A DNA stretch of 64,000 nucleotides, from NCBI RefSeq assembly GCF_003334385.1, contig NZ_QOWN01000024.1; one strand, 5' to 3'. How positions within the stretch are numbered: position 1 is the first letter of the stretch; each line of letters begins with the position of its first letter. Shown in pieces: positions 4,542-54,692 of the stretch. The stretch comes from Escherichia coli. Its GTDB lineage: Bacteria > Pseudomonadota > Gammaproteobacteria > Enterobacterales > Enterobacteriaceae. The notes under the pieces were generated by a model, which searched no databases, was not told the DNA's origin, and was given only the letters and a program-made list of their open reading frames with translations. The translations under genes and the position numbers were made by a program.

Positions 4542-5591
4542 TTATTTCCTGATAGGCAGGTAAACCGAGAACTCGGTATGCCCTGGCCAACTGGTAAATT
4601 CAATTTTGCCTGAATGCTGATCAATCAAATTACGAGCGATGGATAAGCCAAGCCCGGTGCCACCTTCGCGGCCGCTGACCATCGGGTAAAACAGCGTATC
4701 CTGCAAATGAGGCGGAATGCCTGGCCCGTTATCTTCCACATCAATCCGCGCCGCCAGCCGGTAGCGTTCGCCGTGTAAGGTCAGTTGAAACGCGGTGCGG
4801 GTACGCAGAATGATTTCACCGCCTTCCGGCCCCAGCGCCTGTAGCGCATTGCGCACAATATTCAGCAAGACCTGTTCAATTTGATCCGGGTCGTGCGCCA
4901 GTTCTGGCAGGCTGGGGTCGTAATCACGAATCAACCGCACGTTGTCCGGCAGTTCCATCGACACCAGCGTTACCACGCGTTCAGCCACTTTGTGAATACT
5001 TTCGGTAACGCGCGTACCGGGCAGCTGCGGCCCCAACAGACGGTCGACCAGATTTCGCAGCCGGTCCGCCTGTTCGATAATCACTTTGGTATATTCGAGT
5101 AGTGATGGGTCAGGTAACGCTTTGCTGAGCAGCTGCGCCGCGCCACGTAAACCGCCAAGCGGATTTTTAATCTCATGTGCCAGGCCGCGCACTAAATCAC
5201 GGGCAGCAACCTGCTGGGCGTGCTGTAGCTGTTCCTGACTTAAGCGGCGCTGGTTATCCATCGGAGCCATCTCCAGCAGGATCATGCCGTCCGGCATACG
5301 CTGGGCCGTCACAGAAAGGATATGCGAGCGCCCGTCGATGACCAGCGTCACTTCGTTATCGGTAAAACCTTGCCCCGCCTCCAGACTTTCTTGCATCAGC
5401 TCGATATTTAATGAGAAGTAGCTCAACAGTTCCGGTAACGGTGTACCAAACAATTTGCGGGAGCTTTGGGCGAGCAGTTGTTGCGCGGCGGGGTTGGCGT
5501 AATGGATCGCCAGGTTGTCATCGATTAACAAAATACTGTTAATCAGCGAGTTGAGGATCTGCCCAGCATCGGGCTGCGTGCCTGTTGCCAT
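4542..5591 (-). CDS. glnL: nitrogen regulation sensor histidine kinase NtrB
   Basis: 349-aa ORF; H-box [12 protein letters not shown]-binding G-boxes (DNGPGI, GTGLGL). Confidence 0.95.
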
Positions 5592-5678
5592 AAAGCAGTC
5601 TCCTGAACAGGTTGCACCATTTTAGTGCATTATAGCTTTTTACGGATAAAAAGCGCGAAGCATCAGAGAATTGACGGA

Positions 5679-5876
5679 GAAAAAAGCCCATGCAGAGATG
5701 GGCTACAGATAGCTGACAAACTTCACGTTGGAGAGCGACTCACCTGCTCCGGCCTACCACATCATCACCGTGTAGGCCGGATAAGACGCATTTGCGTCGC
5801 ATCCGGCGTGATGTGCTTGCCACCGATCCCAGGCCTGCCAGAGACAGGCGAAAAGTTTCCACGGCAACTAAAACAC
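5679..5876 (-). ncRNA. glnA 3'UTR, candidate GlnZ-type 3'UTR-derived sRNA
   Basis: Minus-strand hairpin gcccatctctgcatgggc plus T-run (plus coords 5680-5704) about 195 nt downstream of the glnA stop; the 3'UTR includes a REP-like palindrome. sRNA status inferred from position only. Confidence 0.3.
5751..5838. repeat. REP palindromic element(s) in glnA-glnL intergenic region
   Basis: ggcctaccacatcatcaccgtgtaggccggataagacgcatttgcgtcgcatccggcg with REP core motifs. Confidence 0.7.
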
Positions 5877-7286
5877 TTAGACGCTGTAGTACAGCTCAAA
5901 CTCTACCGGATGCGGAGTCATACGCACGCGGTCATCTTCTTCGCGACGCAGTGCGATGTACGCATCAATTGCTTCGTCAGTGAACACGCCACCGGCTTTC
6001 AGGAACTCGCGGTCCAGATCCAGTTCGTTCAGTGCTTCTTCCAGAGAGCCTGCAACCTGTGGGATCTCTTTCGCTTCTTCTGGCGGCAGGTCATACAGGT
6101 TTTTGTCCATGGCTTCGCCCGGATGGATCTTGTTCTTGATACCATCAAGACCGGCCATCAGCAGGGCAGCAAAGCACAGGTACGGGTTAGCTGCCGGATC
6201 CGGGAAACGTACTTCGATACGACGTGCTTTCGGAGAAGAAACCACCGGAATACGGATAGACGCAGAACGGTTACGCGCAGAGTAAGCCAGCATTACCGGT
6301 GCTTCATAGCCCGGGACCAGACGCTTATAAGAGTTGGTGGTCGGGTTTGCCAGGGCGTTAATCGCTTTAGCGTGTTTGATTACGCCGCCAATGTAGTACA
6401 GCGCCTGCTCAGACAGACCTGCGTATTTGTCGCCTGCGAACAGGTTAACGCCGTTTTTAGACAGAGACATGTGGCAGTGCATACCGGAGCCGTTATCACC
6501 GAACATCGGTTTTGGCATAAAGGTCGCGGTTTTACCGAAGCGGTGCGCTACGTTGTGCACAACATATTTGTAGATCTGAATTTCGTCAGCTTTTTTGGTC
6601 ATGGTATTGAAGCGGGTAGCCACTTCGTTCTGACCAGCAGTCGCTACTTCGTGGTGATGGGCTTCAACCACCAGGCCCATCTGTTCCATCACCAGACACA
6701 TTTCAGAACGAATATCCTGAGCAGAGTCTACCGGCGGAACCGGGAAGTAACCGCCTTTCACTGCCGGACGGTGACCTTTGTTACCACCTTCATATTGGGT
6801 GGAGGAGTTCCATGCGCCTTCGATATCGTCGATAGCAACGTGAGAACCGGAGATAGATGATCCGAAACGGATGTCATCGAACAGGAAGAATTCAGGTTCT
6901 GGCCCGAACAGTACGGTGTCGGCAATGCCAGTGGAACGCAGGTAATCTTCGGCGCGCTTCGCAATGGAGCGCGGGTCACGGTCATAGCCTTGCAGGGTGC
7001 CAGGTTCAAGGATGTCGCAACGGATAATCAGGGTGGAGTCGGCGAAGAACGGGTCAATCACTGCGGTGGATGCGTCTGGCATCAGCACCATGTCGGACTC
7101 GTTAATGCCTTTCCAGCCGCCAATCGAGGAGCCGTCAAACATTTTGCCTTCTTCGAAGAATTCAGCATTCACCTGATGAGCAGGGATAGTGACGTGCTGT
7201 TCTTTACCTTTAGTATCGGTGAAGCGCAAATCAACAAACTTCACTTCGTGCTCGTTCAGCATCGTCAGTACGTGTTCAGCGGACAT
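5877..7286 (-). CDS. glnA: glutamine synthetase
   Basis: 469-aa [38 protein letters not shown]; adenylylation-site region NLYDLP present. Confidence 0.97.
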
Positions 7287-7367
7287 ACTTTAACTCTCCT
7301 GGATTGGTCATGGTCGTCGTGGTAACGAAATCTGCAATTATTTTGGCCGTGTCGCCGTAAAAAAGAT

Positions 7368-7388
7368 AAAGCGAAATCTGTGCCAACT
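7368..7388 (-). promoter_or_regulatory. glnAp2 sigma54 (-24/-12) promoter
   Basis: Minus strand reads TTGGCACAGATTTCGCT (GG-N10-GC spacing) about 75 bp upstream of the glnA start. Confidence 0.8.
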
Positions 7389-7454
7389 TTTAAATTGCCC
7401 CTAAAAGGCGTTATCATGCGCACCATCGTGCAAAAGGGCTGCACCACGATGTGA

Positions 7455-7512
7455 ACGTTGCACCAATATAGTGCTTCAATGGAAACATTAAGCACCATGT
7501 TGGTGCAATGAC
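7455..7512 (-). promoter_or_regulatory. NtrC enhancer binding sites upstream of glnA
   Basis: Palindromic GCACCAtgtTGGTGC at about 7495-7509 and TGCACCAatataGTGC at about 7459-7474, roughly -140 and -108 relative to glnAp2. Confidence 0.7.
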
Positions 7513-7658
7513 CTTTGGATAACCCTTTTTATGCTCCGTGAAAGCGATCACAAAGGGACTCTGCAATACTTGTTTGCGGAGGATGTTTGTGATCCTGTTT
7601 TGTAGTGCGATTAATCCGTGTACAATAACGCGCTATTTCTAATGCCTGAGGCAAAGTT

Positions 7659-12769: not shown

Positions 12770-12848
<79 letters not shown>

Positions 12849-40510: not shown

Positions 40511-40735
40511 ACCCGTAGGCCGGATAAGGCGCTCGCGCCGCATCCGGCAATCAATGCCTGATGCGACGCTGTCGCGTCTTATCAGGCCTACAACTATTGC
40601 CGACCTGTAGGCCGGATAAGGCACTTGTGCCGCATCCGGCAATCAATGCCTGATGCGACGCTGTCGCGTCTTATCAGGCCTACAACTGTTGCCGACCCGT
40701 AGGCCGGATAAGGCGCTCGCGCCGCATCCGGCAGT
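40511..40735. repeat. BIME array: about 2.5 tandem copies of a ~100-bp REP-containing unit
   Basis: Unit gtaggccggataaggcgctcgcgccgcatccggcaatcaatgcctgatgcgacgctgtcgcgtcttatcaggcctacaac(t/a)(a/g)ttgccgac repeated between rhaA stop and rhaD start. Confidence 0.9.
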
Positions 40736-49520: not shown

Positions 49521-49606
49521 TGTAGGCCTGATAAGACGCTATCAGCGTCGCATCAGGCATCCTGCTCAAATGCCTGATGCGGCGTAAACGCCTTATCCTG
49601 CCTGCA
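49521..49606. repeat. REP palindromic elements
   Basis: gtaggcctgataagacgctatcagcgtcgcatcaggc and gcctgatgcggcgtaaacgccttatcc between convergent yiiM and cpxA. Confidence 0.8.
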
Positions 49607-54584: not shown

Positions 54585-54692
54585 TGCCTGATGCGCTTCG
54601 CTTATCAGGCCTACATGAATTCTGCAATTTATTGAATTTGCAAACTTTTGTAGGCCGGATAAGGCGTTCGCGCCGCATCCGGCATGGACAAA
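54585..54692. repeat. REP palindromic elements
   Basis: atgcctgatgcgcttcgcttatcaggcctac ... gtaggccggataaggcgttcgcgccgcatccggc between pfkA and sbp. Confidence 0.8.

Follow-up and report, generated by a model that had tools for sequence, protein, structure and literature searches.

What does the long 3' untranslated region (3'UTR) that follows glnA in the 64,000-nucleotide stretch of Escherichia coli DNA analysed here (the window) do? Does it act only on the mRNA of which it forms the end, or is it also the source of a regulatory RNA? The first-pass annotation had described a long glnA 3'UTR that contains a REP element and ends in an intrinsic terminator. All three elements were found on the minus strand, and the description is confirmed because the REP, the hairpin and the T-run are all located after the glnA stop. 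The bounds proposed for the segment, 5679-5876, enclose the UTR with the lower bound placed 1 nt off, 5679 being the C just past the U-run. The features of the locus are as follows.

5877..7286, minus strand: glnA coding sequence (glutamine synthetase, 469 aa), from the list of open reading frames (ORFs) and named glnA in K-12 records
5879..5877, minus strand: glnA stop codon TAA, read from the sequence
5876..5680, minus strand: complete glnA 3'UTR of 197 nt, of the 'K-12 type' or class III architecture, read from the sequence
5680..5873, minus strand: 194-nt form of the small RNA (sRNA) GlnZ (glnZ, b4836), the MG1655 ncRNA at 4056428-4056621
4542..5591, minus strand: glnL, the next gene after glnA, with glnG also on the minus strand
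Plus strand, divergent from glnA: typA/bipA

Identity and biogenesis of the RNA

The coordinates of glnA and glnL in the RefSeq record give a constant offset of 4,050,748 between the window and MG1655, and window positions 5600-5950 are 100% identical to E. coli K-12 strains. The curated MG1655 record carries an ncRNA here, glnZ (b4836), described as 'small regulatory RNA GlnZ'. The earlier proposal that the glnA 3'UTR encodes an sRNA is therefore correct, as the segment is the annotated glnZ and does not differ from that of K-12. The glnA mRNA is the parent of GlnZ, and the UTR lies 3' of glnA, on the same strand and upstream of glnL. In genomes annotated by PGAP the UTR is without any feature. 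GlnZ is not among the families of Rfam 15, and in a search of 5300-7600 (E <= 1) none of those families reached its gathering score in the UTR. The only Rfam match within the UTR, naRNA4 (RF02564, a REP-derived nucleoid-associated RNA; 30.4 bits at 5775-5835, against a gathering score of 59.5), covers nothing but the REP hairpin and is explained by similarity to REPs alone.

We consider it practically certain that the stretch is the reference GlnZ gene of K-12, an sRNA that is induced by NtrC, released by RNase E and repressive toward its targets. This assignment follows from the complete identity with K-12, the mapping onto b4836, and an anatomy that matches the published description. The computable features that define GlnZ (position, identity, seed, terminator, target complementarity and class III layout) were all found, and nothing in the sequence contradicts the assignment. 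Compared with E. coli K-12 GlnZ, the sequence, coordinates, seed, REP stem and terminator are the same, with no difference. The feature is already known, and the main finding adds nothing new, as GlnZ has been published since 2022 and its gene is present in the reference annotation.

The flanking regions contain further recognizable elements. The ES222 sRNA (RF02755) has a strong Rfam match at 7470-7577 on the plus strand (135.3 bits, gathering score 62, E 8e-28). This match falls between glnA and typA/bipA and has the orientation of typA; on the other strand, the same DNA includes part of the regulatory region upstream of glnA. The sequence TGGCACAGATTTCGC upstream of glnA (7371-7385, minus strand) has the form of a sigma-54 promoter and is presumably glnAp2. 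Several half-sites of the TGCACC/GGTGCA type farther upstream (7400-7500) are likewise candidates, read from the sequence, and we take them to be of the kind bound by NtrC. Downstream of the GlnZ terminator, a TATAAT (5634..5629, minus strand) overlaps the palindrome TGCACTAAAATGGTGCA (5629..5613) and looks like what we assume to be the NtrC-repressed glnL promoter. This putative promoter at 5634..5629 was not picked up by the consensus promoter scan. The block AAAAGCTATAATGCACTAAAATGGTGCAAC is identical in all four E. coli alleles, in E. albertii and in Salmonella diarizonae, and has one substitution in Citrobacter FP75.

K-12 GlnZ had earlier been detected as a fragment of the glnA 3'UTR. 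Walling et al. 2022 (bioRxiv 10.1101/2022.04.01.486790) described forms of 213, 194 and 174 nt that end at a Term-seq 3' end past the terminator; these lengths, counted from a 3' end at 5680, place the 5' ends at 5892, 5873 and 5853, respectively. In the same study the RNA was induced upon nitrogen starvation through NtrC, was mainly processed from the glnA mRNA, and co-purified with Hfq. According to Miyakoshi et al. 2022 (eLife, PMC9731577), release requires Hfq and two cuts by RNase E, one on each side of the stop codon, and sucA repression requires that GlnZ be released from the mRNA. The NtrC induction, RNase E processing, Hfq dependence and target repression referred to here are taken solely from these two papers, whereas the identity with the annotated gene, the anatomy, the conservation of seed and terminator and the seed-target complementarity were computed in this analysis.

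Independent transcription of GlnZ from a promoter inside the end of glnA would account for the 213-nt form with a start near 5892. Differential RNA-seq does hint that a primary transcript starts 213 nt away from the terminator (Walling et al. 2022), and a weak -10-like TAGAGT is present at 5905..5900. Nevertheless, the promoter scan of 5400-6100 found no sigma-70-like site, a PglnZ-lacZ fusion had no detectable activity, and deletion of the glnA promoter lowered GlnZ (Walling et al. 2022). In addition, pBAD-glnA without arabinose gave no GlnZ, and RNase E inactivation or mutation of the cleavage sites abolished it (PMC9731577). An internal promoter as the source of GlnZ is thus very unlikely, and processing from the glnA mRNA is the preferred reading.

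Seed, REP stem and terminator

The class III layout was defined by Walling et al. 2022 by a seed close to the stop codon and by an insertion with a REP that parts this seed from the terminator. Within the UTR, both the sequence and the predicted fold give the order of a U-rich single-stranded start, hairpin 1, a long paired region and the terminator. The individual elements, all on the minus strand, are the following.

5854..5873: seed region UUUUAGUUGCCGUGGAAACU, between nt 194 and 174 from the 3' end
5868..5856: seed core GTTGCCGTGGAAA, 13 nt, an exact match
5865 and 5862: positions of the published mutations G12 and G15
5833..5849: hairpin 1 (GCCUGUC-UCU-GGCAGGC), directly 3' of the seed, in the MFE and centroid folds
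5707..5829: extended stem around the REP, paired over most of its length (UTR nt 48-170 of the fold), a spacer between seed and terminator
5772..5807: REP element GCCGGATGCGACGCAAATGCGTCTTATCCGGCCTAC, an inverted repeat with an exact tail motif
5744..5757: degenerate second REP arm, inverted, GTAGGCCGGAGCAG, which pairs with the tail of the first REP; its motif matches with 2 mismatches on the plus strand
5680..5704: Rho-independent terminator of the glnA mRNA and GlnZ, from the terminator scan (stem 5704..5685, U-run 5685..5680)

The seed, published as nt 194 to 174 counted from the 3' end (Walling et al. 2022), begins 3-4 nt past the glnA stop in the K-12 form. The allele alignment showed that a 19-nt seed stretch, TTTAGTTGCCGTGGAAACT, is identical in O157-type alleles, and that 16 nt, TTTAGTTGCCGTGGAA, are common to all four alleles, the O111 type being without one base thereafter. 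The sequence TTTAGTTGCCGTGGAAA is the same in all alleles, located 3 nt past the stop in K-12 and directly before the terminator in the others.

Target complementarity was examined with RNAduplex, by pairing the first 23 nt of the UTR with the MG1655 sdhB-sucA, glnH-glnP and pdhR-aceE leaders and comparing the energies with those of 500 dinucleotide-shuffled seeds. The duplex with the sucA leader had an energy of -25.5 kcal/mol, equalled by 1 of the 500 shuffled seeds; those with the glnP leader (-22.0 kcal/mol) and the aceE leader (-20.9 kcal/mol) were each equalled by 6 of 500. Experimentally, repression of glnP and sucA is direct, as established by compensatory mutations, and aceE is also repressed (Walling et al. 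2022). GlnZ G12C is compensated by aceE C-99G, and repression of sucA is relieved by G15C and not by G12C (PMC9731577). In the predicted aceE duplex, nt 12 of the UTR (G12) pairs with C-99, which is the published compensatory pair. G15 is central in the predicted sucA duplex, a position compatible with the G15C effect that does not prove the exact pairing.

The middle of the UTR contains two inverted repeats, one of 15 nt with 87% complementarity (5776-5790/5793-5807) and one of 10 nt with 100% complementarity (5748-5757/5772-5781). The REP tail motif CTTATCCGGCCTAC is exact at 5772-5785 on the minus strand, and the element has the form that defines a REP, a ~35-nt palindrome of imperfect symmetry between conserved GCCGGATG...CTTATCCGGCCTAC ends. 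When up to 2 mismatches are allowed, the 64-kb window contains 16 matches to the motif against 0.24 expected, a number that none of 100 shuffles reached. The exact tail motif and this excess identify the palindrome as a true member of the REP family. REP copies are dispersed through the window, several of them clustered. The other copies are located at 2782-2865, 12812-12825, 30064-30126, 40515-40712, 49522-49605 and 54601-54663, mostly as inverted pairs resembling BIMEs, and the cluster at 40515-40712 comprises five motif matches.

Folding of the 198-nt stretch yielded -81 kcal/mol, compared with -65.4 +/- 4.0 kcal/mol for dinucleotide-shuffled sequences (z = -3.9), none of which, out of 200, folded as stably. 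Probing with RNase T1 and RNase III indicated that the internal REP forms a long stem, which RNase III cuts in vitro (Walling et al. 2022). In an rnc mutant there is less GlnZ and not more, an effect shared with other sRNAs (Walling et al. 2022). No REP-deletion experiment was found in the parts of the GlnZ literature covered (Walling et al. 2022; PMC9731577).

The terminator consists of the hairpin AGCCCATCTCTGCATGGGCT followed by TTTTTC, the last T of the hairpin being the first of six consecutive T. Positions 5705..5677 also match a covariance model of the glnA terminator of enterobacteria (28.3 bits, E ~8e-6). Hfq is expected to bind the 3' U-tail module of the terminator; both the 3' end seen by Term-seq and the role of the terminator as Hfq ligand have been described (Walling et al. 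2022; PMC9731577).

Together with the published data, these elements are consistent with the following mechanism. Upon nitrogen limitation NtrC would activate glnA transcription, as published, which would stop at the intrinsic terminator (5704..5680). RNase E, with Hfq, would cut on both sides of the stop codon, also as published, to produce an RNA of ~194 nt (5873..5680). The single-stranded 5' seed of this RNA (core GUUGCCGUGGAAA, 5868..5856) would pair with the sucA, glnP and aceE leaders and repress them, and 2-oxoglutarate would be diverted to the synthesis of glutamate and glutamine. The REP and its partial inverted copy would form the long stem, which may keep the seed free and spatially near the terminator/Hfq module despite the ~150 nt between them.

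REP stem-loops at the 3' ends of transcripts are known stabilisers of mRNA. The UTR could accordingly have a function only in cis, the REP stem and the terminator protecting the glnA mRNA or tuning read-through into glnLG, with no RNA acting in trans. The very stable fold is in keeping with such a function, as is the slightly lowered GlnA level after deletion of the terminator (PMC9731577). However, the strongest conservation resides in the single-stranded seed of 13 to 20 nt and not in the REP, and 71% of E. coli genomes, like almost all of the other species among the matches listed, have no REP here. Moreover, GlnA and NtrC levels remain unchanged when the 3'UTR is partially deleted or when the three UTR types, including O157 and O111, are swapped (PMC9731577), and regulation in trans has been demonstrated by compensatory mutations (Walling et al. 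2022; PMC9731577). A function confined to cis is therefore extremely unlikely; a stabilising role of the terminator in cis can coexist with the sRNA function and does not replace it. That the segment encodes a small protein, either the 40-codon GTG ORF (5740..5862, minus strand) or the 44-codon TTG ORF (5765..5899, minus strand) of the mechanical ORF list, is so improbable that it can be dismissed: both ORFs cross the REP palindrome and the paired stem, neither survives in the O157-type or O111-type alleles or in the Citrobacter form without a REP, the GTG lacks a Shine-Dalgarno sequence and lies inside the conserved seed, and MG1655 annotates no protein there. These small UTR ORFs were rejected as unconserved between alleles and as running through paired REP sequence.

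Alleles and relatives of GlnZ

Three UTR types have been reported for E. coli, the 'K-12 type' of 197 nt, the 'O157 type' of 85 nt and the 'O111 type' of 230 nt (Miyakoshi et al. 2022). The first-pass annotation had suggested that the REP alters the length or the stability of the RNA. The difference in length is borne out by 197 nt against the 85 nt of the O157-type allele; an effect on stability is hypothetical. Among 5426 complete E. coli genomes, the K-12-type UTR is present in 1571 (29%), with at least 99% identity in 1570 of those, and the O111-type UTR in 993. By subtraction, ~2860 genomes have the O157-type length, a number consistent with the 239-nt matches.

The O157-type GlnZ (class I, known as EsrF in EHEC) and the O111-type GlnZ originate from the same host gene, have an identical terminator, and share the induction and targets of the K-12 type (Walling et al. 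2022; PMC9731577). In these two types the seed is located 4-5 nt before the terminator, after a leader of ~40 nt with a CCCGGCG/CGCCGGG hairpin, whereas in the K-12 type ~150 nt, including the REP, separate seed and terminator.

The extra segment of the O111 type (L003 412-560) is bounded by GGTTCAAA direct repeats at UTR positions 38 and 145. A copy of it, ~86% identical, is present between nfi and hemE in another E. coli genome (L130 1201-1332), and some E. coli genomes have up to 3 places that match the O111 query. Because of this copy and these multiple matches, the segment is apparently not unique DNA but a small repeat dispersed over intergenic regions. It showed no convincing match to an Rfam family. 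In one further genome, E. coli AMSHJX01 (NZ_CP030939.1 4845538-4850641; L005), glnA is apparently missing between typA and glnL; frameshifted fragments of ybhQ, of a gene of the endonuclease/exonuclease/phosphatase family and of clsB are in its place, and glnL is frameshifted. This locus (H30; only 30% of the query matched), in a record with many frameshifted pseudogenes, was not counted as a real allele, since it probably represents a poor assembly or a rearranged strain.

Other species were scanned with degenerate DNA for the C-terminus of GlnA (EFELYYSV plus stop) in species-representative genomes, which returned at least 120 loci; the resulting taxonomic distribution is a sample and not a census, with typical S. 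enterica and E. fergusonii not among the matches listed. Within 400 nt of the stop, the seed core was found with up to 2 mismatches in 70 of the 120 loci among the matches listed, and exactly in 52. The seed lies at most 6 nt before a terminator hairpin in 64 of the 70 seed-positive loci, and 9 to 320 nt lie between the stop and the seed, both among the matches listed. The named seed-positive loci among these matches all belong to Enterobacterales. The seed is absent from loci of Rheinheimera, Marinomonas, Cellvibrio, Alkalimonas and the like, again among the matches listed, which have the same GlnA C-terminus.

Alignment of 56 distinct modules of the adjacent type, drawn from the matches listed and with four further distinct modules left out, revealed a uniform GTTGCCGTGGAAAC-TTTnAGCCCATC-loop-GATGGGCTTTTTTCTC organization with 26 invariant columns. 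Across these Enterobacterales modules the stem arms of the terminator (CCCAT/ATGGG) are invariant, without covariation, and the variation is restricted to the loop, the outermost (two) stem pairs and the innermost one. The sequence conservation of the terminator stem exceeds what hairpin formation alone requires.

The GlnZ of Salmonella enterica (class II), which occurs as a 185-nt GlnZ1 and a GlnZ2 of ~50 nt, shares with K-12 GlnZ the origin in the glnA 3'UTR, the release by RNase E, the seed core and the repression of sucA and glnP (PMC9731577). It differs in that the seed adjoins the terminator, after a long leader, and it does not repress aceE because a G replaces the U at the position equivalent to U6 of K-12 (PMC9731577).

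A relative may also be present in Rfam under another name. The 3' 45 nt of the consensus of RF02766, Ysr49 (Yersinia sRNA 49), GCCGuGGAAACUUUUgGCCCauCUuaGGauGGGCuUUUUU, correspond to the seed-plus-terminator module of GlnZ. Ysr49 matched only on glnA 3' ends, as listed below, all below its gathering score of 95 bits.

L087 3117-3267, minus strand, and L107 1916-2013, minus strand: two Yersinia loci (43.9 and 32.6 bits)
L002 355-459, plus strand: O157-type allele (34.1 bits)

Ysr49 gave no match in the K-12 window and none at the gathering threshold in the two Yersinia loci, and Rfam makes no link between Ysr49 and GlnZ. Ysr49 is probably the Yersinia ortholog of GlnZ; the equivalence is probable and not proven because all matches are below threshold.

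Beyond GlnZ itself, CpxQ (from cpxP) follows the same logic of biogenesis, with a shared terminator, RNase E and Hfq. SroC (from gltI) also resembles GlnZ, sharing its terminator with the mRNA, being cut by RNase E near the stop codon and binding Hfq (PMC9731577). Both differ from GlnZ in parent genes, seeds and regulons, and neither has a REP inside the RNA. The MgrR of E. fergusonii, cited by Walling et al. 2022, is similar to GlnZ in having a REP between functional modules; there the REP insertion is reported to abolish regulation of a known target, whereas GlnZ retains regulation.

Origin of the split K-12 architecture

A covariance model built from the aligned seed-terminator modules recognizes the O157 and O111 alleles as one unit with 68-69 bits. 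In the K-12 window the same model splits into two matches, one to the seed and hairpin 1 (5876..5831; 31 bits, E 1.5e-6) and the other to the terminator (28.3 bits); the next best match in the window has E = 0.56. The model aligns hairpin 1 to terminator-stem positions.

Several similarities connect hairpin 1 to the terminator. The two have the same UUU(U)-(A/C)GCC lead-in, the same offset from the seed and a 7-bp stem, the U-tail being lost in hairpin 1. Hairpin 1 is identical to the terminator at 13 of 20 positions. Of 234 placements of a GC-rich 7-bp hairpin across the window, none comes closer, and one ties with it in the comparison against the K-12 terminator. Two of its stem pairs are changed on both sides and still pair (C-G to U-A and A-U to G-C). 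Furthermore, a 35-nt blastn match joins the seed and the 5' half of the terminator of the O111 allele to K-12 positions 5873..5839. These observations hint, short of proof, that hairpin 1 derives from a copy of the terminator that has since decayed. The published 174-nt processing site (5853) is located in the U-rich stretch just before hairpin 1, and Walling et al. 2022 considered the first stem-loop a possible RNase E determinant.

The split architecture extends beyond K-12. It is found with a REP in E. albertii (L015), and in S. enterica subsp. diarizonae (L123 313-520, plus strand) with a different, Salmonella-type REP-like palindrome (GGGCCTAC...GTAGGCCC), so that the latter is K-12-like and unlike the class II GlnZ of Salmonella. 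Citrobacter sp. FP75 (L022 725-868, minus strand) has the split backbone without a REP, in the order seed, hairpin 1, TGAGATCGATGGC, GTTTGCCAG..ATCTGT and terminator. Hairpin 1 is kept in all three, with a G-C to G-U change. The first-pass annotation had pictured a REP insertion; a REP is indeed present, but the REP-less Citrobacter backbone indicates that the K-12 form is not simply the short form plus a REP. Judged from this comparison of sequences, the ~80-nt extension appears to be older than the REP, since Citrobacter FP75 has the backbone without it, and the REP would fill the variable middle of the extension.

If K-12 class III had arisen by tandem duplication, a decayed copy of the seed would be predicted before the true terminator. 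This prediction was not supported in K-12, which matches model positions 26-54 only, nor in S. diarizonae, where full-length alignment gains only a few bits. Neither Walling et al. 2022 nor PMC9731577 was found to mention a duplicated or fossil terminator, and the word 'duplication' occurs 0 times in the Walling preprint. We tentatively propose, as a possible but rather doubtful history, that K-12 class III is an old separate allele lineage in which the ancestral module was split. In this history hairpin 1 would be the fossil of a terminator, the transcript would have been lengthened up to a second, orthologous terminator, and the REP would have come into that extension afterwards. The distribution of the split form over 29% of E. 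coli genomes, E. albertii, diarizonae and Citrobacter implies either a long-lived trans-species polymorphism or intergenus recombination at the glnA-glnL spacer.

As GlnZ itself is known, the residual value of the analysis lies in the exact mapping of its published features to window coordinates, the frequencies of the three alleles across 5426 complete E. coli genomes, the REP-less K-12 backbone in Citrobacter, the hint of a relation between hairpin 1 and the terminator, and the probable missing cross-reference in Rfam (Ysr49 as Yersinia GlnZ). A derivation of hairpin 1 from the terminator, if true, would constitute a small case study of the remodelling of a 3'UTR-derived sRNA. For the biology of E. 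coli, the locus means that one mRNA yields both the enzyme that assimilates nitrogen and an sRNA that restrains 2-oxoglutarate dehydrogenase as well as the import of glutamine, so that the fluxes of carbon and nitrogen are coupled.
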